This document shows, in pieces, positions 3,211 to 51,474 of a stretch of 64,000 bases of DNA. Made by a program: the position numbers and the translations under genes. This stretch comes from Anaerolineales bacterium (GTDB lineage Bacteria; Chloroflexota; Anaerolineae; Anaerolineales; Villigracilaceae): positions 3,634,001 to 3,698,000 of the forward strand of contig CP129482.1 in the NCBI GenBank assembly GCA_030583925.1, given 5' to 3'. How positions within the stretch are numbered: position 1 is the stretch's first letter; each line of letters opens with the position of its first letter. A model generated the notes under the pieces. It was not told where the DNA came from, searched no databases, and saw nothing but the letters and a program-made list of their open reading frames with translations.

Positions 3211-3291
3211 GTAAATACGTAGACACGTACACAGGTAAACACGTAACTCCGTGTGTACTTTGTTTACCTGTGTACCTGTTTGCCTGTCTAC
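3211..3291. repeat. Inverted octamer-periodic array
   Basis: gtaaatac gtagacac gtacacag gtaaacac ... tgtttacc tgtgtacc tgtttgcc tgtctac; same family as 365-424. Confidence 0.7.
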
Positions 3292-9516: not shown

Positions 9517-11022
9517 TTAATGTGTGTTTTTAAAATACTCCGCCATCAAATCGGAAATATCTGTCGCAGAATGTTCGCGGAAGACGCGGAAAAAATCTGC
9601 CGACGTGGCGCGCTTGCCCGCGTATTGCGAATAATAATCTTTGAGGAAGGCGAAGAAAATTTCATCGCCCACGCGCTCGCGCAACTTCTGCAAAAAGCGC
9701 GCGCCCGAAAGATAGACCTTGTCCCAATACGGTCTCTGCCCGCCGCCGTCGTAGACTTGCGTATCCACATAGCCCGCATTTTGAAATTCAAAATAACGAT
9801 AGCCCCACCACCACGAAACGAGATCGGGATAAATTGATTCGTAATAGATCACTTCGCTGTACGTGGCAAGCGCCTCATCGAGCCACGGCTCGAGCGCCTG
9901 ATCGTTCGCCACCGCGTCGAACCACCATTGATGCGCGGTCTCGTGCGCGCCGATGGTCACGAGATAATTCGCAGGCGTGTTATCGTACAAATTAAAATAA
10001 TCACGGCTGATGAAATAAAAACCAGAGAACTCCATGCCGTCGTTGAAATCGCCTTGCACGGCGGTCAACGTTTTGTGGCGATACGGTCCAAACTTTTCGG
10101 TGAAGACCTCCAGCGCTTGCGCGGTGGTCTGCAACAACGCCTCGCCCTGCGTATCGTAAAACGAAAAATAATACGCGTAGACTTTCACATCGCCGACGGT
10201 CTGCGTGGCGACTTTGTACACCGTGCTGATGGATAACGCAAACGTGCGCCCCGCTTCCAACTCGAACTTACGGCTGTCCGCAGACCCTGAAGCCACCTCC
10301 GCCCCCGACGCGGCGATCTGCAGCGTCGTCCCATCGGTGAATGAAACGGTCACATCAAAATCAGCGACATCATAGACGAGATGCTCGCCATAGAACCAGG
10401 GGTTGTGCAAGACCCATCCCTCGCCCGATTTGTATGGCACAACGAACGGATACCAATCCACAAAATTGATTTGCCGATCCGAGTATCCATAAATCTGCGG
10501 GCGGACTTCGTTCGGGTTGCTGTACGCCTGCATCTGCGGGAGGATGAGTCCATAACTCATTGTGATGGTGATCGTTCCGCTTGGAGGCAAAGGCTGAGGG
10601 AGAGGGATTTCGAGGCGTTGCGATTGAGGTTCAAGAACGTAATTGGTAATTGGTAATTGGTCAACGGTGAGAGAGCGAAGATCGAATCCGCCGCTCCATA
10701 AATTTGGTTCGACAGCAAGGACGATGCTCGTTAGCGTTTCGCCTGTCCAGTTGGGATAGGTGATTGTCTGATTCACTTCCGCCGCTTTCGCCGAGTAGTT
10801 GAACTGCAAGTCAATCACATACTGCGGACGTTCCAATTCGGGCGTGAGCGTGGGAAATGGAGTCGGAGTCTCGGTGGGAAGCGCGGTTTCGCTCGGTGCG
10901 GCTGTCGGCGAGGGAGGTTGGGTTTCGGTTGGGAGAGGAGGGGGGGATGAGGGAGAACAGGAGATTAAGAGAGAAATGCAAAAAACAGAAACCAGAATGC
11001 GCGGCGCGATGGATTTGGACAT
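9517..11022 (-). CDS. M1-family metallopeptidase lipoprotein, paralog of 7865-9418
   Basis: LISC signal, HETAH-X18-E; shared LTDWYPFVVP/FVDWYPFVVP and GEHLVYD blocks. Confidence 0.8.
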   Translation of the reverse strand: MSKSIAPRILVSVFCISLLISCSPSSPPPLPTETQPPSPTAAPSETALPTETPTPFPTLTPELERPQYVIDLQFNYSAKAAEVNQTITYPNWTGETLTSIVLAVEPNLWSGGFDLRSLTVDQLPITNYVLEPQSQRLEIPLPQPLPPSGTITITMSYGLILPQMQAYSNPNEVRPQIYGYSDRQINFVDWYPFVVPYKSGEGWVLHNPWFYGEHLVYDVADFDVTVSFTDGTTLQIAASGAEVASGSADSRKFELEAGRTFALSISTVYKVATQTVGDVKVYAYYFSFYDTQGEALLQTTAQALEVFTEKFGPYRHKTLTAVQGDFNDGMEFSGFYFISRDYFNLYDNTPANYLVTIGAHETAHQWWFDAVANDQALEPWLDEALATYSEVIYYESIYPDLVSWWWGYRYFEFQNAGYVDTQVYDGGGQRPYWDKVYLSGARFLQKLRERVGDEIFFAFLKDYYSQYAGKRATSADFFRVFREHSATDISDLMAEYFKNTH

Positions 11023-13426: not shown

Positions 13427-14266
13427 TTATATCGTTTTTATCTTCCTTCCCCCAAACGCGACCACGAAGAAAAACGTTGCTACCAGCACAATCGCCGCTC
13501 CCGACGCAATACTCAAATAATACGAAAGATACAAGCCGATAACTCCCGATAACGAAGCAAAGATCGCCGCGAGAAGCATCATCCTCGGCAGGCGGTTCGT
13601 GAGCAGGTATGCGGTCGCGGCGGGGGTGACGAGCATGGCAACCATGAGCGCCACGCCGACTGTTTGAAGCGAGACCGCGACCGTGACGGCGATCAACACG
13701 AGCAACAAGTTATTGAGCAAGTCCACGGGGAGGCGGAGCGTGGCGGCAAGGATGGGGTCAAAGGAGAGCGTGGTGAATTCCTTGTAGAAGGCGAAGATGA
13801 TGAAGAGGACGATTCCGCCGAAGAGAAGAATCAGCCACAAACTTTGAATCGAAACAGACAGCACATCCCCAAAGAGGAAGTGACTCAGGTCCACGGCGTA
13901 ACTGCGGACGGTGGAGATGAGTGCAATTCCCAGCGCGAACATGCCCGCGAAGATAATCCCGATGGCAGTGTCTTCCTTGATCTGGGAATTTTTGCTGATC
14001 GCGCCGATGCCCAGCGAGGCGATAATGGCTGTGCCAAGCGCCCACCAAAATAACTCGTTGCGCGCGCCGCCACTGACGAGATAACCGAGGGCGATGCCAG
14101 GCAGAATCGTGTGTGCGAGCGCGTCGCCGAAGAACGCCATGCCGCGCAAGACGACGAAGGTTCCAACAATTGCACAAACAATTCCAACAAGAACTGCAGC
14201 GATCATGCCTCTTTGCATAAATTCATATTGAAGCGGTTCAAGCAAGAAATTAATGAGTGTGGTCAT
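13427..14266 (-). CDS. Zn/Mn ABC transporter permease (ZnuB/MntB-like)
   Basis: VVLRGMAFFGDALAHTILPG and TVGVALMVAMLVTPA; start placed at MTTLINF. Confidence 0.9.
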   Translation of the reverse strand: MTTLINFLLEPLQYEFMQRGMIAAVLVGIVCAIVGTFVVLRGMAFFGDALAHTILPGIALGYLVSGGARNELFWWALGTAIIASLGIGAISKNSQIKEDTAIGIIFAGMFALGIALISTVRSYAVDLSHFLFGDVLSVSIQSLWLILLFGGIVLFIIFAFYKEFTTLSFDPILAATLRLPVDLLNNLLLVLIAVTVAVSLQTVGVALMVAMLVTPAATAYLLTNRLPRMMLLAAIFASLSGVIGLYLSYYLSIASGAAIVLVATFFFVVAFGGRKIKTI

Positions 14267-33070: not shown

Positions 33071-34018
33071 TTAACTGTAATACCAACCAAAAATCCTGTT
33101 ATACACCGCCAGCAAAACTTTCTTGATAACCCCAATTTCCAACAAACGCTTTCCAAACCCTCCCTTCCGCCTTCTGCTTTCTGTTTTCAGTTCCCCTCTC
33201 AAATACCCCAGCGTATTGGACATATTCATCGCCAGCGGATCGCTCACCATCAGCCGCAGTAAGCCTGCATCGTTCATGCGTTTGTCTAGTTGGCGGACTT
33301 GTCCCATTGGCTTGTCCATGTCAAAGGGCAGGAATTGTTGAAGCGTGGATTTATACGCCGTGAACTGCCAGTGACTTGCGCCAGCCATTGCCGTCACGCC
33401 TTTGTAAACCAGTCTCCAGTCTCTAGTCTCTGCATAAACCTTCTTATTCTCCTCCTCCGTCTGCCCCAGCGACAAGTTGAACTCCAAGAATGTTTCCCAC
33501 GGAATGAATTGACCTTCTTCGAGTTGGGCGTTTGCCTTCGCCCATTTCAACGTCGCTTCGTAAAACTCAGGCGGCGTTCTGAACGGTCTGGCAGTGACCA
33601 TGCCGACGTTCGGAAACGTTTCGAGAATTTCCACAGAACGTGAGAGCCACTTTGGGGAAAATAAAACGTCGCTGTCGGTGTAGGCGATGATCTCGCCAGG
33701 CGCGCCCGCCAGCATCACATTCCACGCGCCGCCTTTGCCGACATTTTTCTCGGACAAAATCAAATATTGGATTCGTCCCGCCTCTTTTTCGCCGATCAAA
33801 TAATCACGCGCTTCGGCGCACGAGCCGTTATCGAAGACCATCAAGTCGAACGGCAAGCCCGCGTCGTTTCGCATCGAGTCCATGCAGACTTTCAGCACAT
33901 CCAGCGTCTCGGTGTAGAATCCGCTCAGGAAGGGGATGTAATTCAACAACGCCACAGTCACCCGTTCGGGCTTGGCAACGTCTTTGACGAACTTGGCGGG
34001 GTTTTGTCCTTTGCGCAT
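33071..34018 (-). CDS. Glycosyltransferase family 2 (GT-A)
   Basis: VFDNGS, NVGKGGAWN, YTDSD DxD motif. Confidence 0.85.
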   Translation of the reverse strand: MRKGQNPAKFVKDVAKPERVTVALLNYIPFLSGFYTETLDVLKVCMDSMRNDAGLPFDLMVFDNGSCAEARDYLIGEKEAGRIQYLILSEKNVGKGGAWNVMLAGAPGEIIAYTDSDVLFSPKWLSRSVEILETFPNVGMVTARPFRTPPEFYEATLKWAKANAQLEEGQFIPWETFLEFNLSLGQTEEENKKVYAETRDWRLVYKGVTAMAGASHWQFTAYKSTLQQFLPFDMDKPMGQVRQLDKRMNDAGLLRLMVSDPLAMNMSNTLGYLRGELKTESRRRKGGFGKRLLEIGVIKKVLLAVYNRIFGWYYS

Positions 34019-34167: not shown

Positions 34168-35073
34168 TTACTTGAAAATATTTTTCAATCGTTTTTGCCA
34201 TCGTTTTGGGCGGGCGATATTCTCAATCATGTTTTCAGGCAAAAAGAAAAAGACTGCTCGCAAGAATAATTCCAACTTGCGAGTAAACCGAAGCGACGTC
34301 ATCTTCGGGCGCGACAGTTTACCATCAATTAATTCGTGTGTCGCATCCAAAATTGTATATCGCACGTTCGCCTGTCCGCCCGCGAGCCGAATATTTTCAT
34401 TCGTCTCAGGATGTTCGTAGTGCGGCTTACCATCGGGCAGGTGCGAGTAATCGTGGTTCTGATGCACGATCATCACCGACGGCGTGCAATCAATCGCCGC
34501 CCAATTTTCTGCCCGCGCTTTGTAGATCATCCAATTATCCCAGCCCGCGCGACCGATCGTAAAATTCGGGACGTCTTGATAACAATTTTTTGGGAAGAGG
34601 AAAAAATCGCTTCCCGCGGGACGGTGAAGCTGGTTCAGTCTTCGGACAGATTCTCTCAGCCTCGATTCCCACCCCTCGGCAAAATCCAGCGGCGACGTGA
34701 TGTCATAATCCCAACGTTGACTCAGCAAAACGAATTTCGACCTTTGACCTTCGACCTTTTTCGCCGCCTCGACAAAATCATCCATTAAAATCATATCGGC
34801 GTTGACGATGCACAACAATTCGCTGTTTGAATTTTCCCTCGCAACCTCAAACATGGACGAGATCAACGGCACGCCATTTTCATTGACTTTCACTTTGGGA
34901 AAATGCCTGACGTTCAATTCTTTTGCAATCTCCGCAACCCCCGCCTCATCGCCAAGCAAAATGACTTCAACATCGGGAAGCATTGTCCACGATTTGATGG
35001 CGTTGCGTTGAATCATGGCAACATGCTGATTCGTGAAAGGCTTGGGGGCGGAGAAGAAAGTGATTAGGGGCAT
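34168..35073 (-). CDS. Hypothetical glycosyltransferase-like protein
   Basis: NADMIL DxD-like motif, GRAGWDNW; glycan-locus context. Confidence 0.55.
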   Translation of the reverse strand: MPLITFFSAPKPFTNQHVAMIQRNAIKSWTMLPDVEVILLGDEAGVAEIAKELNVRHFPKVKVNENGVPLISSMFEVARENSNSELLCIVNADMILMDDFVEAAKKVEGQRSKFVLLSQRWDYDITSPLDFAEGWESRLRESVRRLNQLHRPAGSDFFLFPKNCYQDVPNFTIGRAGWDNWMIYKARAENWAAIDCTPSVMIVHQNHDYSHLPDGKPHYEHPETNENIRLAGGQANVRYTILDATHELIDGKLSRPKMTSLRFTRKLELFLRAVFFFLPENMIENIARPKRWQKRLKNIFK

Positions 35074-35181: not shown

Positions 35182-35994
35182 TTATTTTAGAGCACGGTCA
35201 TCAAAATCTTTCAACGTCTTATGCTGAACGCCTGCGTTAATCTTCATCAGTTCGGGGTGGTCGTGAACCAAATCGAGAACTTCCTTCCATGAGAAATCAT
35301 CACGACCATTGAAATGACTGTACACCTGCCGCATGAATTCCAAATCTTCGGGCGCATCCACCGTCCAGCGGTAATCGCCGAAGTCGGTGGTGTGGTGGAG
35401 GAGGGCGATGTTGTAGCCGCGTGGGGAAGCGCCAGTTTGCAGTTGACGGTTGACAGTTGTCAGTTCGACGCCTTCGTAGAAGTAAGGCATGACATGTTCA
35501 CGGTGCTGAGGTTCTTTAGCTTCTTTCCATGCTTGCTTCAATACTTTGAACGTGCAGGCTTCCACATCCAAGCCAATGGGGTAAGTGCGATGATAAGGCG
35601 GGGGCAGACGGTTGCAGACAAAATCATATTCATCTTCAAGCAAAGTATTGACCACATCATCAATCAACATAGGCTCAATCACTGGACAATCCGCAGTGAT
35701 TCGCACAACCACATCCGCTTTGGCTGACTTGGCGGTCTGATAATAACGGTCCAGCACGTCGTAGAGGCTGCCGCGCGTGAATGGGATTCCGCTGAAGTCG
35801 CAGTATTCGGCGACGGGGTCGTCGGAGGGATCGGTCGTCGTGGCGAAAACGGTTTGGGAAACTGAGGCAGACCGCGAGGTCCGAACGAAGACGCGTTGGA
35901 GCATGGGCTGTCCCGCGATGTCCGCGAGAATCTTCCCAGGCAGTCGCGATGAACTCATCCGCCCTTGTATGATGGCAACGACACGCGCTGTCAC
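35182..35994 (-). CDS. SpsF-like cytidylyltransferase (CMP-nonulosonate synthetase-like)
   Basis: IIQGRMSSSRLPGK, GSLYDVLDRY, VRITADCP, RWTVDAPED. Confidence 0.85.
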   Translation of the reverse strand: MTARVVAIIQGRMSSSRLPGKILADIAGQPMLQRVFVRTSRSASVSQTVFATTTDPSDDPVAEYCDFSGIPFTRGSLYDVLDRYYQTAKSAKADVVVRITADCPVIEPMLIDDVVNTLLEDEYDFVCNRLPPPYHRTYPIGLDVEACTFKVLKQAWKEAKEPQHREHVMPYFYEGVELTTVNRQLQTGASPRGYNIALLHHTTDFGDYRWTVDAPEDLEFMRQVYSHFNGRDDFSWKEVLDLVHDHPELMKINAGVQHKTLKDFDDRALK

Positions 35995-36394: not shown

Positions 36395-37714
36395 TTACAC
36401 CGCTTGCGCCTCAGACGGTATGGGCAGGGGAACGACAAATCCTTTCGCTCGAAATTTTTCGACATACTCACGCACGACCCAATAATCCAAACCGACCTGT
36501 TCGGCGATGTCGAAGATGGAATGTTCGCCCTCGAAGCGCATCATGATCTTTTCGATGGCGCGGTTGAGCGCCCAATTGTCGCGCCAATCCACCCAGAGAC
36601 CGTGTCCGCTGAGAAACACAGGACCACGGAACGTGCGCTTCGGAATGTAATTGCTGGCGTAGATGCGGACGATGTCTTCGGCAATCTGCGCCGCGCCGAC
36701 GAGCATATCTTCGTGGATGATGTCGAGATTGTCGTCGGTGGTGTGATACTCGTCGTAGGGAAAACGGTTGAGCGAAATGCACGGCACGTTGACGCCAGGT
36801 CCGTTGATGACGCGTTCATCGTTGGCGGGAGCGGAGGCGAAGTCACGTTCATCGTGTTCGATATTGTGTAATTGGTAATTGGTAATTCGGTCGAGGAGAT
36901 GATCGTGCTGTCGCGTATGATGCCATGCAATTTTGTTTTTATTACCCGTCATCTCCATAAAGATTCCGCCGCGTAGATTTGGAATCAGCGACTCGTTGTG
37001 CGCCAGCCAGGCGATCGTGCCGATCGTCTCGGGTCCAAACCAAAAGCGGACGCTCATCGCGCCAGCGGGAAGCGGATTCTCCGCCAGCCGCCGCGCCAAC
37101 TCGATGGCGCTGACCACGCCTGCCCCATCGTCGTTGGCTTGCATGGGGTGACAGGTATGCGCCTGCACAAGGAACTCGCCCGCTTCGGGATTCGCCCCAC
37201 CTTGCGGATGGACAACCGCCGTAGCGACTTTGAATCCCTGCCTGGGATCGGTGACGAACTCGGACCTGATCACCGCATGATATTTTTTGTCGCGTGGGAG
37301 TTTATCGAATGTGTTTTTCGGCAAACAGAAGCCCCAGTCACGTTCGTAATATTTGAAAATCCACGGCACAGTGTGCGGACGCTTCTCGTTGAAATACAAA
37401 TGCGGCTGGAGTTCGTCGAAGCTCAAGACCACGTCAACGGGCAACGAATACGAAACAATGTGAAGCGGATTATCTTTGAAATCCACAATTCGCTCGCCTT
37501 CTTCGGTTTCGAGATACGCCTCATGGACAACGTACCGCTCAGGCACTTTCCACGTCCAGACGGGAGTCAGCGGCGCGTAGGTTTCAATCGTGTAATTCGA
37601 CGAATCGGGCATGTACGAGCCGACGATCTCCAACGTTTTGTCGTGGTCGTCTGAGGCGAGGGTGCGGTGCAGAGGAAAAAATTCTGCGAGGATGGATTTG
37701 AGGGAGGGTCTCAT
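36395..37714 (-). CDS. DUF4910-domain protein (peptidase M28-like fold)
   Basis: TWKVPERY, NPLHIVSYS, YYERDWGFC, CHPMQANDDGAG, PETIG, YHTTDD. Confidence 0.8.
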   Translation of the reverse strand: MRPSLKSILAEFFPLHRTLASDDHDKTLEIVGSYMPDSSNYTIETYAPLTPVWTWKVPERYVVHEAYLETEEGERIVDFKDNPLHIVSYSLPVDVVLSFDELQPHLYFNEKRPHTVPWIFKYYERDWGFCLPKNTFDKLPRDKKYHAVIRSEFVTDPRQGFKVATAVVHPQGGANPEAGEFLVQAHTCHPMQANDDGAGVVSAIELARRLAENPLPAGAMSVRFWFGPETIGTIAWLAHNESLIPNLRGGIFMEMTGNKNKIAWHHTRQHDHLLDRITNYQLHNIEHDERDFASAPANDERVINGPGVNVPCISLNRFPYDEYHTTDDNLDIIHEDMLVGAAQIAEDIVRIYASNYIPKRTFRGPVFLSGHGLWVDWRDNWALNRAIEKIMMRFEGEHSIFDIAEQVGLDYWVVREYVEKFRAKGFVVPLPIPSEAQAV

Positions 37715-38821: not shown

Positions 38822-39955
38822 CTAAATGCCTTTGACCTTCTCGTAAGCCTCAAGAAGTGTACCAAAATTCCTCCTCCAATCCGCCCTCGCCTCCGCCGTC
38901 TTGCGCGCCGATTCTCCAATCCTCTTAAATTCTCTCTTTCTTTTTATCGCGGACAGAATTTTCTCCGCCAAATCCTCCACATCTCCATCACGGAACAACC
39001 ACCCGTTGACTCCATCCTCGATCCATTCCCTGTTGCCCGCAATATCCGACACCAAACACGGAAGCCCACTCGCCATCGCCTCCATCAACGTCACAGACGA
39101 ACCGTCCACATGCGACGGCGAGATGTACACATCCGCCATGTGATACCAGCGCGGCAGGTCGCGTTGTCCCACCTGTCCCCCAAAATGGACTCGTTCCATC
39201 ACCCCGCCCTTCATCAATATCTGGCGGATCTGATTCCCCTGCGAACCGCCTCCCAGCAAAATCAGATTCACATGTGGATTTTCATTCGCCACCATCACGA
39301 ACGCCTTCGCCAACACATCCACCCCATAGATCGCCTCCCACGTGCGGCTACAAAACAAAGTCACTGACTTTCGACTTTCGATTTTCGATTGACGACTTCT
39401 GTCTCCTGCCTTCTGCTTTCCGCTTTTTGCGCCCTTCGGCTTAAAACTTCCCAAATCAATCCCCCACGGAAACACCACCGTCCGCTCAGAATCCATCCCA
39501 AACGCAACTGCTTTTTCCCGCGTCACATTGGCGTCACATGTAAAATACGCGCTCCTTTGTAACGTGTACCTCGTAACCCATCGCATCCACGCGCTCTTAT
39601 CCGCCTCCATCACCAAATCATATCCCCACGACATCGCCAGCAAATGACGGAATCCGCTCAACGCCACAAGGAAGGCGCAATTCTGAATCGGTCCCGCATG
39701 GATGATGTCAGGCTGAATCTCCTGAATCACTCTTCGCAGGCTGAATACCAACCTCGGCACATCCCGCCAACGAAATTCGTTCCGCCCGCCCGCCCACAAA
39801 ATCTGCCGAACCTCCGCAGGGACAGGACGATCCTCCGTCTGCCGTTGAGTCGACTCCAATTGCAAAAAGCAGATTTCATGCTTCGTCTTCGACAACGATG
39901 ACAGAAACCGATAATCGTGCGGGGTATAGTTTTTACTGAAATAGATAATTTTCAT
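38822..39955 (-). CDS. Glycosyltransferase family 4 (GT-B)
   Basis: DGSSVTLMEAMASGLP...SDIAGNRE; start placed at MKIIYF because the ORF-track extension is REP sequence. Confidence 0.88.
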   Translation of the reverse strand: MKIIYFSKNYTPHDYRFLSSLSKTKHEICFLQLESTQRQTEDRPVPAEVRQILWAGGRNEFRWRDVPRLVFSLRRVIQEIQPDIIHAGPIQNCAFLVALSGFRHLLAMSWGYDLVMEADKSAWMRWVTRYTLQRSAYFTCDANVTREKAVAFGMDSERTVVFPWGIDLGSFKPKGAKSGKQKAGDRSRQSKIESRKSVTLFCSRTWEAIYGVDVLAKAFVMVANENPHVNLILLGGGSQGNQIRQILMKGGVMERVHFGGQVGQRDLPRWYHMADVYISPSHVDGSSVTLMEAMASGLPCLVSDIAGNREWIEDGVNGWLFRDGDVEDLAEKILSAIKRKREFKRIGESARKTAEARADWRRNFGTLLEAYEKVKGI

Positions 39956-43064: not shown

Positions 43065-44030
43065 CTACTGGGCGAATTTGTCGCCGTCGGCAGAGTGCGA
43101 CGCACCCTCGCCTGGCTGTTGATAACCCCTGATTTTCTGTGGATAACCCTGCTGGAACTGCGTATAAAACCCGTCTAAGCCTGTGGAGAACGGGGGGAGT
43201 TCGTGCCCCAGCGCGGTGGATAACTTGTGGACAGACAGCCATAAATTGTGGGAACGTTTGGCGGTCAAGCCCGACCTTTCGACTGACTGCGGCTCGATGA
43301 GGCTTTCTTTCAGCCCGAACTTTCTTGCCACCTCCACCCCGAACTGATACTTGTTCATCGCCTGCGCGCCGACGACGTGATACAAACCATGCAAATCTTT
43401 CTTGAGCATTTCGATCAGGATGCGGCTGAGATGGTTGACCCACATCGGGCAGAAGACGACATCGGTGAAGCCGTTGACATTTTTGCCCGCGCTCAAGTTG
43501 TTGACAAAGAATTCGCCGAGACTCCTCCGCCCACCCAGCGACCAACCGTAGAAGTTGACGCGCGCCACGATCGCCTGCGGATTGGCGGACAGAACCGCCC
43601 GTTCTCCCTCCAATTTGGTCTGGGCATAGGCACCCAGCGGATTCGCCTCGTCAGCCTCGGTGTATGCGCCCTCTTTTGTGCCGTCGAATACCGCGTCGGT
43701 GGAGAAGTGAATGAACTTGACGCTTCGCCTCGCACACTCATTCGCCATCTCGGCTGGAACTTCGGCGTTCAGAATTCTCGCCTCGTCGGGACGCTCCTCG
43801 CACTCTTCCAGATTCGCAAATGCGGCGCAATTGATCAGCCAATCGGGTCTGGTTGAATCGAGGATGGATGCGACACTGCCCGCCCTGAGCAAATTCGCAT
43901 GAAGCACCCGAAACGGTGCGGACTTCAATTTGTCCCTGTCCACGCCAATGACATCATGCTCGCGCTTGGTTTCAAGAGCGAGGTTGATTCCGAGCAGTCC
44001 GCTTGCGCCAGTGATTAATATTCGAGCCAT
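43065..44030 (-). CDS. RmlD-like NDP-4-keto-6-deoxyhexose reductase (SDR)
   Basis: ITGASGLLG, INCAA, HFSTDAVFDG, YAQTK (YxxxK). Confidence 0.85.
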   Translation of the reverse strand: MARILITGASGLLGINLALETKREHDVIGVDRDKLKSAPFRVLHANLLRAGSVASILDSTRPDWLINCAAFANLEECEERPDEARILNAEVPAEMANECARRSVKFIHFSTDAVFDGTKEGAYTEADEANPLGAYAQTKLEGERAVLSANPQAIVARVNFYGWSLGGRRSLGEFFVNNLSAGKNVNGFTDVVFCPMWVNHLSRILIEMLKKDLHGLYHVVGAQAMNKYQFGVEVARKFGLKESLIEPQSVERSGLTAKRSHNLWLSVHKLSTALGHELPPFSTGLDGFYTQFQQGYPQKIRGYQQPGEGASHSADGDKFAQ

Positions 44031-44033
44031 GGG

Positions 44034-44082
44034 TTAAGTTCCAAGTTTCAAGTTCAATGTTTCAAGTTCGAGGTTTCACGTT
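44034..44082. repeat. Heptamer array (7 units, consensus TCAAGTT)
   Basis: ttaagtt ccaagtt tcaagtt caatgtt tcaagtt cgaggtt tcacgtt. Confidence 0.85.
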
Positions 44083-44084
44083 GG

Positions 44085-44483
44085 CTATGAAGCAGGCGAA
44101 GGCTTGTTTGGACGGTGGGGATTCTTCAGGATGCCTTTCTTCAGTCCGCCGATGATCGCTTGTGTCTTTTTAGCTTGGTCATAATGGGCTTTGAAAGATT
44201 CATCATTTATGTAACGAACGTCCAAAGCAACGTAAAGAAGGGATTGAACTTCCACAGCAGAACGACGCGCCATTCCCAAAAACCGTGCAAACTCCGCAGT
44301 AGATTCGTTGTCGAATCCTTCTGCAATATTGGTCATGGCAGAAACAGCGGCTCGTTGAACTTGATCCTTCATTCCAAAGTCTTTTGAAAACGCTCCCTCA
44401 GCCGTTATTTTGTAAATCATCTTCACCAACTTGCGAGCCTCCTGCCATGCGATCAAATCTTCAAATTTCGTTATAGCACCCAT
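44085..44483 (-). CDS. Four-helix-bundle protein (23S rRNA IVS/bAvd-like family)
   Basis: FEDLIAWQEA...DQVQRAAVSAMTNIAEG...ARRSAVEVQSLL. Confidence 0.92.
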   Translation of the reverse strand: MGAITKFEDLIAWQEARKLVKMIYKITAEGAFSKDFGMKDQVQRAAVSAMTNIAEGFDNESTAEFARFLGMARRSAVEVQSLLYVALDVRYINDESFKAHYDQAKKTQAIIGGLKKGILKNPHRPNKPSPAS

Positions 44484-44502
44484 TTTTCGCTCCTTCGGAA
44501 TG

Positions 44503-44534
44503 AACTTGAGACTTGAAACGTCGAACGTGAAACT
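44503..44534. repeat. Heptamer array, inverted relative to 44034-44082
   Basis: aacttga gacttga aacgtcg aacgtga; reverse complements are tcaagtt, tcaagtc, cgacgtt, tcacgtt. Confidence 0.8.
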
Positions 44535-44536
44535 CT

Positions 44537-45547
44537 CTATCCTTCGAGTTTGCCTTGCTTGAACAACTCCTCAAATGGCGCGACGAATTTTTTGATGCCG
44601 TCAATATCCAGCCATTCGGAATTGTTATCGCTCGTGTATGTGAAACCTTCGGGGAGCGGCTTACCTTTGTCCTTCCACGAGTAGCCGAACCACGAAGCCT
44701 CGGCGGGTTGGATGACATACATCCCGTCGAGTTCGACCGTGTGGCGGGCTTCGTCGTCCGAGATCAAATCTTCGTGGAGTTTTTCGCCAGGACGGATGCC
44801 TATGATGTCAATCTTTGCATTCGGCACGATGGCTTTGGCGAGGTCAACGACTTTCGTGCTGGGAATCTTCGGCACGAACACTTCGCCGCCTTCCATCTGT
44901 TCGATGCACTCGATCACAAATTTGACTCCCTGGTCCAGCGACAGCCAGAAGCGCGTCATGCGTTCGTCCGTGATGGTGACTGCACCGCTCTCCCGTTGTT
45001 TAAGGAACAACGGCACAACCGAGCCGCGCGAGCCGACGACATTCCCGTATCGGACGCACGAGTAGCGGGTCGCTGAGCCTGCGGCATAGGCGTTACTTTG
45101 CACGGTCAGTTTTTCGGCGGCTAGTTTTGTCGCGCCGTATAAATTCGCAGGGCTGACGGCTTTATCGGTGCTGATGGTCATCACCTTTTTCACGCCCGCA
45201 TCCAGCGCGGCTTCGACCACGTTCGCCGTGCCCATGATGTTGGTCTTGATGGCTTCCATCGGGTTGTACTCGCAGGCTGGCACCTGCTTCAACGCCGCCG
45301 CATGGACAACGATATCCACCCCGTGCATGGCACGGACGAGCCGCTCACGGTCGCGGATGTCGCCGATGAAATAGCGCAGTGACGGATGGTTGAATCCCTG
45401 CACCTGCATTTCGTGCTGTTTCAACTCGTCGCGGCTGAAGATGATGATCTTCTTCGGCTGTTTCTCGTCCAGCAACGTCTGCGTGAACTTCTTGCCGAAC
45501 GACCCCGTCCCGCCTGTGATGAGGATGACTTGATTTTTCCAGTCCAT
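44537..45547 (-). CDS. pseB: UDP-GlcNAc 4,6-dehydratase (inverting)
   Basis: ITGGTGSFG, FSRDELKQ, HAAALKQVPACEYNP, STDKA, YGATKL, RYGNVVGSRGS; start placed at MDWKN. Confidence 0.92.
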   Translation of the reverse strand: MDWKNQVILITGGTGSFGKKFTQTLLDEKQPKKIIIFSRDELKQHEMQVQGFNHPSLRYFIGDIRDRERLVRAMHGVDIVVHAAALKQVPACEYNPMEAIKTNIMGTANVVEAALDAGVKKVMTISTDKAVSPANLYGATKLAAEKLTVQSNAYAAGSATRYSCVRYGNVVGSRGSVVPLFLKQRESGAVTITDERMTRFWLSLDQGVKFVIECIEQMEGGEVFVPKIPSTKVVDLAKAIVPNAKIDIIGIRPGEKLHEDLISDDEARHTVELDGMYVIQPAEASWFGYSWKDKGKPLPEGFTYTSDNNSEWLDIDGIKKFVAPFEELFKQGKLEG

Positions 45548-45564
45548 AAAAACTCCTAATTTCA

Positions 45565-45700
45565 TGTCGTTGCGAGGGCGCTCGTCCTGAGCGGAGCCCG
45601 AAGGGCGCAGACGAAGGAGCGCCCGAAGCAATCTCCTGTTATCAGGCAAATGCTTGTTGCGAGGAGATTGCTTCGCCGCCTTCGGCGTCTCGCAACGACA
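45565..45700. repeat. REP doublet, copy 8, with an extra palindrome in its loop
   Basis: tgtcgttgcgagggcgctc[gtcctgagcggag...gacgaag]gagcgcccgaagcaatctcc...ctcgcaacgaca. Confidence 0.85.
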
Positions 45701-47430: not shown

Positions 47431-49047
47431 TTATTTCCACGTAAACGGCTCACCAACGAGAAAACCGAACGTATCGCCAAATTGACTCATACCTTCGTCG
47501 CTCAACACTTTCTCCAACGACCACACATCCAGATCATCCCAAAAGTTCATCAGCCGCCACGGAAACGGACGCGGGTATTCAAAAAAGAAGCGATAGGCGT
47601 AGTTCCATGCTTTCGCGGTCTGCTCTTCGCTCAAACGATGCGCGGGCAAATCGGATAAAACATTTTCGAGCGCGGCAAAATAGTCGTCCCACGAGTTCGG
47701 GTCGATCGTGAAGCCGCGCCTGCGATAATGCGTGTCGCCACACACGATCACTGGGCGTCCGTTCATCGCAGTCTCGACGCCGACCGTGGTTGTATATGCC
47801 AACCCCAGATCGGCGATCTCGATTAGATCGTACGTGTTGACGTTGTCCAGCGCGCCGATGACGTGAATATGTTTTGGGATTTCGGGCAACGCTTCGCTCA
47901 CGACGGTTCCCATCGACTTCGCCTGCGGGACAAGTTTCTCGCCTGGATGCACACGCACCACTAACTGGACCTGAGGTCTGCTCGCAAAAAACTGGACCGT
48001 CCGCGTCATCCACTCGGACATCGACTCGGCGAAGACGTTTCTTCCCAACGTGAGGCTGTCTCCCAGCACGTTAGCCGCCAACAAAACGACGGGGCGGTCG
48101 TCAAGCCCCAACGATTTCTTTGTCGCTTCCGCGCCTTGCGATGAGACGTACTGCCACAGCCGCTTCGATTTTCCCCACACTCGCGCGCCGCGTCGAGCAT
48201 TTTCCAAGTCGGCGAGACGTTCGTACATCTCGTTTGTCATTGGCAATTTGCAGCGCGCTTCGACGAGATAATCCGTATCCTGCCGCATGATGGATGTGTT
48301 TTGCGCCAGCCAAATTTGTTCACGCTGGTCGTTGAATTCAAACGTCACGGCAGGGATGTTCAAATACTTTGCCACACGGAAGACGATTCCCATTTCAAGG
48401 ATCAGCCCGTTTGGAATCAAAACTACATCGGGCTTGTTGGCTTGCATCCATTCGAGGGCGGCGAGGGCGGCGAAAGTGTTGCGTTTGACGCGCAGGTCGT
48501 AGATGGCTTTGTCGCCCACGTCTGACATGTCCACTTCTTCGCGCATGAGGGTGTATTGCGCGTCCCACAGCGAGACTTCTTCGATGTCGGCGGCGAGAGA
48601 GGCGGGGAGAGTGGAGGCAGGCTTCAAATCCAAGAGAGAAACGTGCTGGACGAAAGAGGAAAGAGGAAAGAGGGCGTCGCGCGTATGAAGTCCACGCTGT
48701 CGTTGAGTCAGTTTATCCTTTTCTTTATGCCACTCAGAGTATGGAAGAGTCATCAGCGTGACTTTGTGTCCCAGCCCTGCGAGGGCGAGGGAGATGTACG
48801 CGGCTTGTTCGATCCAGTAGTGGAGGGTGGCGAAGAATAAAATATTCTTTGCTTCGTACTTCGTACTTCGTATTGGTTGTTGCAGGATTGGTTTGATGCG
48901 TTCGATGTCGCGGGGTAATGATTTTTGCAAGCGCGAGAGATTGAAGTGATCTTTGCGGGCGCGGCTTTTTTGCCGAAGCGCGTAATCCAGTTCGGCGGCG
49001 AGAGGCAGTTCGCCAAGAAAGTTGCGGAGGGAGGTTTTGTTGAGCAT
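47431..49047 (-). CDS. Capsule-polysaccharide-synthesis-like transferase (GT-B)
   Basis: LVVRVHPGE and TTTVGVETAMNGRPVIVCGDTHY resemble KpsS/Capsule_synth C-termini. Confidence 0.65.
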   Translation of the reverse strand: MLNKTSLRNFLGELPLAAELDYALRQKSRARKDHFNLSRLQKSLPRDIERIKPILQQPIRSTKYEAKNILFFATLHYWIEQAAYISLALAGLGHKVTLMTLPYSEWHKEKDKLTQRQRGLHTRDALFPLSSFVQHVSLLDLKPASTLPASLAADIEEVSLWDAQYTLMREEVDMSDVGDKAIYDLRVKRNTFAALAALEWMQANKPDVVLIPNGLILEMGIVFRVAKYLNIPAVTFEFNDQREQIWLAQNTSIMRQDTDYLVEARCKLPMTNEMYERLADLENARRGARVWGKSKRLWQYVSSQGAEATKKSLGLDDRPVVLLAANVLGDSLTLGRNVFAESMSEWMTRTVQFFASRPQVQLVVRVHPGEKLVPQAKSMGTVVSEALPEIPKHIHVIGALDNVNTYDLIEIADLGLAYTTTVGVETAMNGRPVIVCGDTHYRRRGFTIDPNSWDDYFAALENVLSDLPAHRLSEEQTAKAWNYAYRFFFEYPRPFPWRLMNFWDDLDVWSLEKVLSDEGMSQFGDTFGFLVGEPFTWK

Positions 49048-51386: not shown

Positions 51387-51474
51387 GTTGAAAGTCAAAG
51401 GTTGAAAGTTGAAGGTCAAAAGTGGAAAGTGGAAAGTGGAAAACCTGCGACCTTCGACCTTAAACTTTCGACCT
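51387..51474. repeat. Head-to-head heptamer arrays with no intervening gene
   Basis: gttgaaa gtcaaag gttgaaa gttgaag gtcaaaa gtggaaa x3 | acctgcg accttcg accttaa actttcg. Confidence 0.8.

Follow-up and report, generated by a model that had tools for sequence, protein, structure and literature searches.

A PF05635 four-helix-bundle gene framed by inverted heptamer arrays in an operon of an Anaerolineales bacterium: a candidate protein-repeat cassette

The closest described counterparts of the locus reported here are the intervening sequences (IVSs) of 23S rRNA that carry an open reading frame, known from Coxiella burnetii and Leptospira (PMC4990558). The Coxiella IVS has three tandem GACAGAT heptamers ahead of its S23p ORF, and RNase III cuts its 28-bp stem (PMC4990558). 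Two other systems, REP/RAYT (REPIN) and the Ssn nucleases with their hairpin repeats, enclose a gene in inverted copies of a repeat that occurs elsewhere in the genome as gene-less hairpins. Tandem 7-nt units are known as well from the STRR repeats of heterocystous cyanobacteria, from Beggiatoaceae (TAACTGA), Xanthomonas (GGGAATC) and Geobacter; they are mostly intergenic with some in genes, evolve rapidly in copy number, and occur in taxa that are rich in PF05635 genes, but the papers describing them tie none to a protein family. The arrays reported here as a rule come in head-to-head pairs and are able to enclose a gene. Since 2007 it has been remarked that bacterial genomes contain heptamer repeats in excess, with no mechanism offered. 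The DGR accessory protein Avd, a four-helix bundle, forms pentamers and binds nucleic acid as part of an RNP. To our knowledge PF05635, a large family with structures solved since 2006, is still without a known function. Its members share a conserved helix-2 motif, RxxxSxxxNxxE, and have been reported within cas loci (PMC3936711). We found no link between this family and inverted heptamer arrays in the literature, save the description of the Coxiella IVS.

The locus lies within a window of 64,000 nucleotides, the whole stretch of DNA analysed here, in a genome assembled as a single 3.97-Mb contig of Anaerolineales-type Chloroflexota from bioreactor sludge. The genes of the region are all on the minus strand, where a Polysacc_synt_2 (pseB-like) gene is followed by a 132-aa ORF and then by an RmlD-type reductase gene (Table 1). 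The ORF runs from an ATG at 44483 to a stop codon at 44085-44087 and is preceded and followed by tandem heptamers, those of the 3' arm being of the reverse complement type of those in the 5' arm. The 3' arm starts 2 nt past the stop codon and ends 5 nt ahead of the reductase ATG, and TRF reports period 7/14 at 44036-44082. Individually the arms are short (35-47 nt) and imperfect; an inverted-repeat search gave complementarity of 24 nt at 88% and of 33 nt at 73%, and the isolated arms fold as RNA with an energy of -31.3 kcal/mol. When the 531-nt stretch was folded as RNA, a 26-bp closing stem appeared in both the MFE and the centroid structure, with the gene enclosed in the loop. Sequence, TRF and RNA folding together confirm the first-pass annotation, which had described heptamer arrays on either side of a four-helix-bundle gene, able to pair around the whole of it, and had placed this cassette between the pseB-like and reductase genes. 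The locus may well be one copy of a conserved cassette, in which a PF05635 gene occupies the apical loop of a hairpin with inverted arms of 7-nt units.

Table 1. Features of the cassette, the adjoining operon genes and the gene-less hairpin, in window coordinates
Feature	Position	Strand	Basis or remark
Downstream operon gene, RmlD_sub_bind reductase	43065..44030	-	Pfam domain; ATG at 44030
3' arm, ~7 heptamers AACGTGA AACCTCG AACTTGA AACATTG AACTTGA AACTTGG AACTTAA	44036..44082	-	sequence, TRF
3' half of predicted 26-bp closing stem	44044..44072	-	pairs with 44505-44534
PF05635/TIGR02436 four-helix-bundle gene, 132 aa	44085..44483	-	Pfam E 2.8e-32; TIGR02436 98.6 bits; PDB 2gsc E 3.8e-14
Shine-Dalgarno GAAGGAG of four-helix-bundle gene, outside 5' arm	44490..44496	-	sequence
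5' arm, five heptamers GTTTCAC GTTCGAC GTTTCAA GTCTCAA GTTCATT	44500..44534	-	2 nt past pseB-like stop
Upstream operon gene, Polysacc_synt_2 (PseB/CapD-type dehydratase)	44537..45649	-	Pfam domain; stop codon 44537-44539
Gene-less head-to-head heptamer hairpin between fcl-like and ABC-2 permease genes	51387..51474	-	TRF, fold

Comparison with the ORF-bearing 23S IVS reveals a shared protein family, an ORF in the loop of a stem of about 26-28 bp formed by terminal inverted repeats, tandem heptamers of variable copy number adjoining the ORF, and a position inside a transcribed unit. Taking as the mark of an IVS an S23p ORF enclosed by terminal inverted repeats that form a stem of at least 20 bp, the present locus has such a stem of 26 bp (44505-44534 with 44044-44072). 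The hosts differ: the rRNA elements occupy helix 25/45 of 23S rRNA, whereas the cassette lies in an mRNA operon spacer, and an rRNA location was rejected for the family in this genome, as no Rfam family was found at any of its eight loci and the neighbours are protein-coding. Here both arms are heptamer arrays in their entirety, and the ORF has a strong Shine-Dalgarno sequence and is under purifying selection, while the Coxiella ORF is decaying. Cleavage by RNase III has been demonstrated for the Coxiella stem; the stem of the cassette is predicted from folding, and RNA contigs from four low-depth runs end at its borders. The cassette would represent the design of the ORF-bearing 23S IVS set in ordinary operons.

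The 132-aa protein matches PF05635 with 111.5 bits (cut-off 33.8) and TIGR02436 with 98.6 bits (cut-off 24), and by sequence it resembles the solved pentameric proteins XCC0516 (2gsc) and BT_0352 (2rld), whose PDB entries contain five chains each. An AF2 monomer model (pLDDT 89.9) has four long helices, and Foldseek aligned it to 2gsc with a TM score of 0.80 and an rmsd of 1.5, to 2rld with a TM score of 0.74 and to Avd (4dwl) with a TM score of 0.70. The kinship in fold with Avd given in the first-pass annotation is borne out; no similarity between the two proteins was found at sequence level, and the cassette, unlike Avd, has no adjacent reverse transcriptase or TR/VR. A DGR link was rejected, the sole RVT_1 match of the genome being at 1866746, about 100 kb from any of the eight PF05635 copies. 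The helix-2 motif is present as R44, S48, N52 and E55; R44, S48 and E55 are invariant among the eight paralogues, and N52 and E55 among 40 homologues. Domain searches of the protein returned PF05635 as the sole match, with no catalytic domain and neither HUH nor GIY-YIG, and the PADLOC defence-system models gave no match. Five intact orthologous copies of the cassette gave dN/dS of 0.05-0.16 at dS of 0.6-1.9. The four-helix-bundle protein is functional, long-resident and under strong purifying selection.

The arrangement is not peculiar to this locus. The genome has eight PF05635 genes, and in all eight the tandem units of 7 or 8 nt found upstream recur downstream as the reverse complement. 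The unit changes from locus to locus (GAGACTG, GGATGAA, AGGTCGA, ATGGNNN and others), while the two arms of any one locus match each other. Flanks were compared by an ungapped flank-complementarity score, and a score of at least 12 was reached by 6/8 PF05635 genes, against 6/600 random genes (~1%) and 13/1184 small genes, these 13 including four of the PF05635 genes themselves; in the two PF05635 genes below 12 the arms overlap the gene's own stop codon. Seven or eight of the eight paralogues are co-oriented with, and lie between, closely spaced genes, in contexts that include tgt/uppP, HlyD/ABC ATPase, two ABC half-transporters and der/oxidoreductase. A single-protein query yielded 80 homologous loci, mostly from Anaerolineales MAGs but also from Acidobacteriota and Desulfobacteraceae, and most of the 76 with both flanks share the layout of gene plus arms. 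Across these 76, mean flank complementarity was 12.8 for a locus's own flanks and 8.2 for cross-locus pairs, and the flank duplex energy was -46.7 kcal/mol for own flanks, -36.4 for cross-locus pairs and -29.2 for shuffled flanks. Units vary by clade (GTTTCAA, GTGTCAG, GTACAAG, GGACTGA). Within the class, PF05635 was found in 130/201 genomes, at 0 to 20 copies each.

Plasmid-borne homologues extend the pattern to other phyla. We examined 18 of them, from Nostoc, Calothrix, Anabaena, Picosynechococcus, Geminocystis, Leptolyngbya, Azospirillum and Gemmatirosa, among others; 16/18 have heptamer arrays, inverted in about 13 and direct in two or three, and several are wedged within operons (cas6/cas4, cas10/cmr3, nrdB/nrdA). 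The first-pass annotation had suggested a survey of the flanks of four-helix-bundle genes, and the arms at 8/8 genes of the genome and at 16/18 plasmid homologues, together with most homologous loci, support the gene with its inverted heptamer arms as a recurrent unit. Direct arrays, which cannot form a stem, occur at some loci (L120, L124 and L125). At the first of these, between cas6 and cas4 on a Pseudanabaena galeata plasmid, the direct arrays consist of AAAAGCT x16 upstream and AAAAGCC x10 downstream, and no closing stem is possible.

With REP/RAYT and Ssn the cassette family shares the nesting of a gene between inverted copies of a dispersed repeat, and at five or six of the eight paralogues the unit family of the arms has 7-41 other arrays in the genome. 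In contrast to those systems, the cassette protein lacks any HUH or GIY-YIG catalytic domain, what defines the repeat, a variable tandem array, is its period and not a fixed palindrome, and the family comprises several old paralogues, each with different units. An encoded nuclease or transposase was not found, PF05635 being the only domain match. Membership of a transposon or MITE class was rejected as well, there being neither target-site duplication nor transposase. The eight paralogous proteins are only 15-47% identical to one another, which marks them as old paralogues and not as recent copies, and neither a recombinase nor recent or near-identical copies were found. No target-site duplication was seen at the cassettes, whose arms abut stop and start codons. 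The age of the paralogues, the strong selection and the lack of any encoded catalytic function argue against an active selfish element, and this part of the first-pass annotation is not upheld.

We favour, at about even confidence, a protein-repeat system that combines an array-binding pentamer, an RNase III-type stem and rare, host-dependent spread; array binding by the protein, cleavage of the RNA and the mode of spread are all putative. The cassette lies between two cistrons and is co-transcribed with them. Its presumably pentameric, Avd-like protein would be the cognate binder of tandem heptamer arrays, each protomer taking up approximately one unit, in a relation like that of RAYT to REP or of Ssn to its hairpins. 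Within the polycistronic RNA, the 26-bp stem may offer a site for double-strand-specific processing of the RNase III type, the kind found in the S23p-bearing 23S IVS, and processing there would detach the cassette transcript from the operon message. Spread would be a rare event that depends on host functions.

The strongest alternative, which we consider possible but clearly less probable, is that the hairpins are a generic class of intercistronic repeat, STRR-like products of slippage that are tolerated or stabilise mRNA and have no functional relation to the protein; PF05635 genes would favour hairpin loops as insertion targets, just as they enter helices of 23S rRNA, and the arms would be the halves of a split target. 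The genome-wide distribution of arrays bears on this on both sides. The genome holds 205 tandem arrays at lag 7 and 81 at lag 8, with at most 23 at each of the other non-multiple lags. They fall into roughly a dozen unit families and include about 46 adjacent head-to-head pairs, which are gene-less hairpins, and a crude ORF call places 110/286 arrays deep within long ORFs; so many gene-less pairs and in-ORF arrays are what a generic repeat would leave. No PF05635 gene is resident in the largest unit families (GGTAATT, TACGCAA, GAAAGAG and the 8-mer GTANACAN), which again suits a generic repeat and excludes, within this genome, a simple rule of one paralogue to one unit family, and the unit family of the 44085-44483 cassette is itself rare in the genome. 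Heptamer SSRs are known, moreover, from many bacteria, and no such link was suggested for them (PMC4692102, PMC4679880, PMC2700814). Against a generic repeat, the arms match within each paralogue locus and differ between loci.

Array density was further compared with PF05635 copy number in 60-100 kb sampled away from known PF05635 copies in 24/201 genomes of the class, together with the present genome. The density of lag-7 arrays correlated with the PF05635 count (Spearman 0.65, p 4e-4, n=25, kinship ignored), while the control lags did not (-0.04), and this too is difficult to reconcile with a repeat unrelated to the protein. At least two arrays per 100 kb were present in 10/13 gene-bearing and in 2/12 gene-less genomes (Fisher p 0.005), and three within-family contrasts agree with the predicted direction. 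Genomes richer in PF05635 genes carry more dispersed heptamer arrays. There are exceptions: two genomes (G098 and G093) have arrays but no PF05635 match, in line with a generic repeat, and in three (G050, G163 and G161) the sample contained no arrays although the gene is present. In G098, a heptamer hairpin array of GATTGGG / TCCCCAA (L271, 13155-13216) and a second array at 13814-13849 are translated in frame within a 906-aa mutS (GIGDWGLILNPQSPVPNPQS).

Several arrays were also observed elsewhere in the window. Head-to-head 8-nt arrays at 3211-3246 and 3252-3291 (GTAAACAC / TGTGTACC) belong to the GTANACAN octamer hairpin family, of which the genome has about 21 arrays or more. Short arrays with a period of 7 and about three units lie at 10639-10661, 33409-33430, 34739-34759, 35440-35465, 36863-36887, 39366-39388, 48652-48673 and 48852-48872; all eight are of unit families common to intergenic hairpins. 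Three heptamer units amount to 21 nt and so keep the reading frame.

Sites with and without the cassette in related species speak to the same alternative. In a survey of the pseB/reductase spacer, for which the orthologous reductase gene and its surroundings were taken from 30 species of the genus, 6/30 species have the cassette, one of these copies with two in-frame stops, so that presence/absence polymorphism, looked for by the first-pass annotation in relatives, is found at this very spacer. In six species the heptamers stand head to head as a hairpin with no gene, of the same GTTTCAN/NTGAAAC family as the cassette; five have an 8-mer hairpin of the GTANACAN family, two a TACGCAA hairpin, and seven a REP-like palindrome, with a remnant of the 3' arm kept in two. 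Such a variety of hairpins in one spacer is what a generic repeat class would show. The species with the cassette are dispersed over a tree built from the flanking genes, where even sister taxa differ. One 73-nt spacer (L105) is identical to the start of the cassette at 35/42 nt and to its end at 20/23 nt, and it retains GACAACC, the sequence 3' of the stop codon in L098; the retention of both ends and of this sequence indicates a cassette that lost its interior by deletion. The spacer between two ABC half-transporter genes is a second such site: a cassette with GGATGAA arms is present in seven of about 25 species, and in another (L259) a 14-codon remnant persists with the 3' arm. The empty spacers of this ABC/ABC site, 13-47 nt long, contain a Shine-Dalgarno sequence or simple stem-loops, or REP-like elements, and no heptamers, whereas every filled site is armed; gene and arms therefore arrive together, contrary to insertion of the gene into a hairpin already in place. 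The two remnants likewise give the direction from cassette to gene-less hairpin, and a route by which the gene enters a pre-existing heptamer hairpin is not needed to explain the sites. Cassettes are acquired whole and passed on vertically, over long periods and under purifying selection; they are lost either by internal deletion, which leaves a gene-less heptamer hairpin, or when a different hairpin repeat takes their place.

Two observations were made on the pseB/reductase spacer in addition. In two sequencing runs (X25 and X31), contigs of relatives leave the start of the reductase gene at window position 44034 and continue as GTAAAGTAGACACGTAGACAAGTAAACAAG; the same reactors hence also house a strain or species that has an 8-mer hairpin in place of the cassette. 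Two loci (L106 of G018 and L107 of G017) have an additional gene, about 0.85 kb long, that separates the cassette, or a REP, from the reductase gene; in the former a second AACTTGA-type array follows this gene, so that the arrays there bracket more than one gene.

If the protein-repeat system that we favour is taken further, PF05635 pentamers would be the sequence-reading partners of heptamer arrays in general. The gene with its inverted arrays would be the autonomous form, the heptamer repeats of cyanobacteria, Xanthomonas, Beggiatoaceae, Geobacter and Chloroflexota would be its gene-less descendants, and the ORF-bearing 23S IVSs would be copies in rRNA helices. We offer this extension tentatively, as the less probable part of our reading. 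The recurrence of gene plus repeats ties an orphan protein family to heptamer repeats that lack an explanation in bacterial genomes, and both puzzles gain a testable hypothesis from the physical coupling of gene and repeat, of gene-bearing and gene-less alternatives at the same operon junction, and of an array load that scales with copy number.

A further alternative, unlikely in our judgement, is that the arms form a purely cis-regulatory, non-mobile device, evolved in place, whose long-range RNA stem controls the gene or insulates the operon, with the dispersed arrays being independent. The robustness of the stem in both predicted structures, the vertical inheritance and purifying selection, and the co-orientation of nearly all paralogues with their neighbours would fit such a device, and so would RNA contig ends at the borders of the stem. 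The transcript data also count for the protein-repeat system that we favour. Sludge metatranscriptome contigs from several studies cover the four-helix-bundle ORF, and a contig at 44347-44669 spans the 5' arm and continues into the pseB-like gene, indicating co-transcription with it. In four RNA runs, contigs (assembled, 2-8x) stop at 44072/44073 or at 44041/44045, where the 3' half of the stem has its inner and its outer border, and no contig from those runs extends to the first 170 nt of the reductase gene, while three DNA-like libraries cross the 3' arm. The coincidence of these ends with the stem borders, in low-depth assembled contigs, hints at processing, and an RNase III (rnc) gene is present in the genome.

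Other evidence weighs against arms that act in cis alone. The arm duplex is slightly more stable in antisense than in sense RNA (49/74 loci, p 0.002), so the G-U wobble asymmetry that we sought as the signature of selection on an mRNA stem is absent, and this, together with the direct arrays at some loci, argues against a reading in terms of RNA only. The polarity of arm composition was dropped as a marker of transcription direction, since an inverted repeat reads alike on both strands. Related cassettes, 72-76% identical, occupy other gene contexts in other genera, and some plasmid copies are antisense to the neighbouring genes. At the ABC/ABC site the cassette protein is 85-91% identical between species and the flanks 72-73%. 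That the flanking arrays are a chance or low-complexity artefact, as their short and imperfect arms might suggest, is extremely improbable and was already refuted, given a signal far above the shuffled, cross-locus and other-gene controls and its recurrence across phyla.

The heptamer hairpin at 51387-51474 had been put forward as an empty counterpart of the cassette. The array is real (-30.1 kcal/mol, z -3.6) and contains the stop codon of the fcl-like gene (51460-51462), but it is of another unit family than the 44085-44483 cassette, and its GGTCGAA/GGTCGCA units are a better match to the arms of the paralogue at genome position 3350030. The related proposal of non-autonomous derivatives is supported in that gene-less hairpins can derive from a cassette, as the two remnants attest. 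One RNA contig (51257-51583) reads through the hairpin, and in two other runs contig ends coincide 18 nt outside it. In some cassette copies an arm substitutes the C-terminal codons and stop of the upstream gene. In the present genome, the 5' arm of the GGATGAA cassette (C1:2126361-2126392) encodes the last residues (…RMNDEG) and the stop codon of the upstream ABC transporter. The GGATGAA cassette has rewritten the C-terminus of its host transporter, as the 51387-51474 hairpin does for the fcl-like gene. The design of the intervening sequence would in this way extend from rRNA to ordinary operons, where it alters gene ends, supplying the fcl stop codon at one locus and an ABC transporter C-terminus at another.

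The genome also has examples of both the REP/RAYT and the Ssn systems. At C1:2306010-2306570, outside the window, an IS200/RAYT-like gene is flanked by inverted REP palindromes (cagcagtgcaactgctga), a classical REP/RAYT pair that coexists with the heptamer system, and at C1 2103522-2104178 a BMC-domain-like gene is flanked by another REP type.
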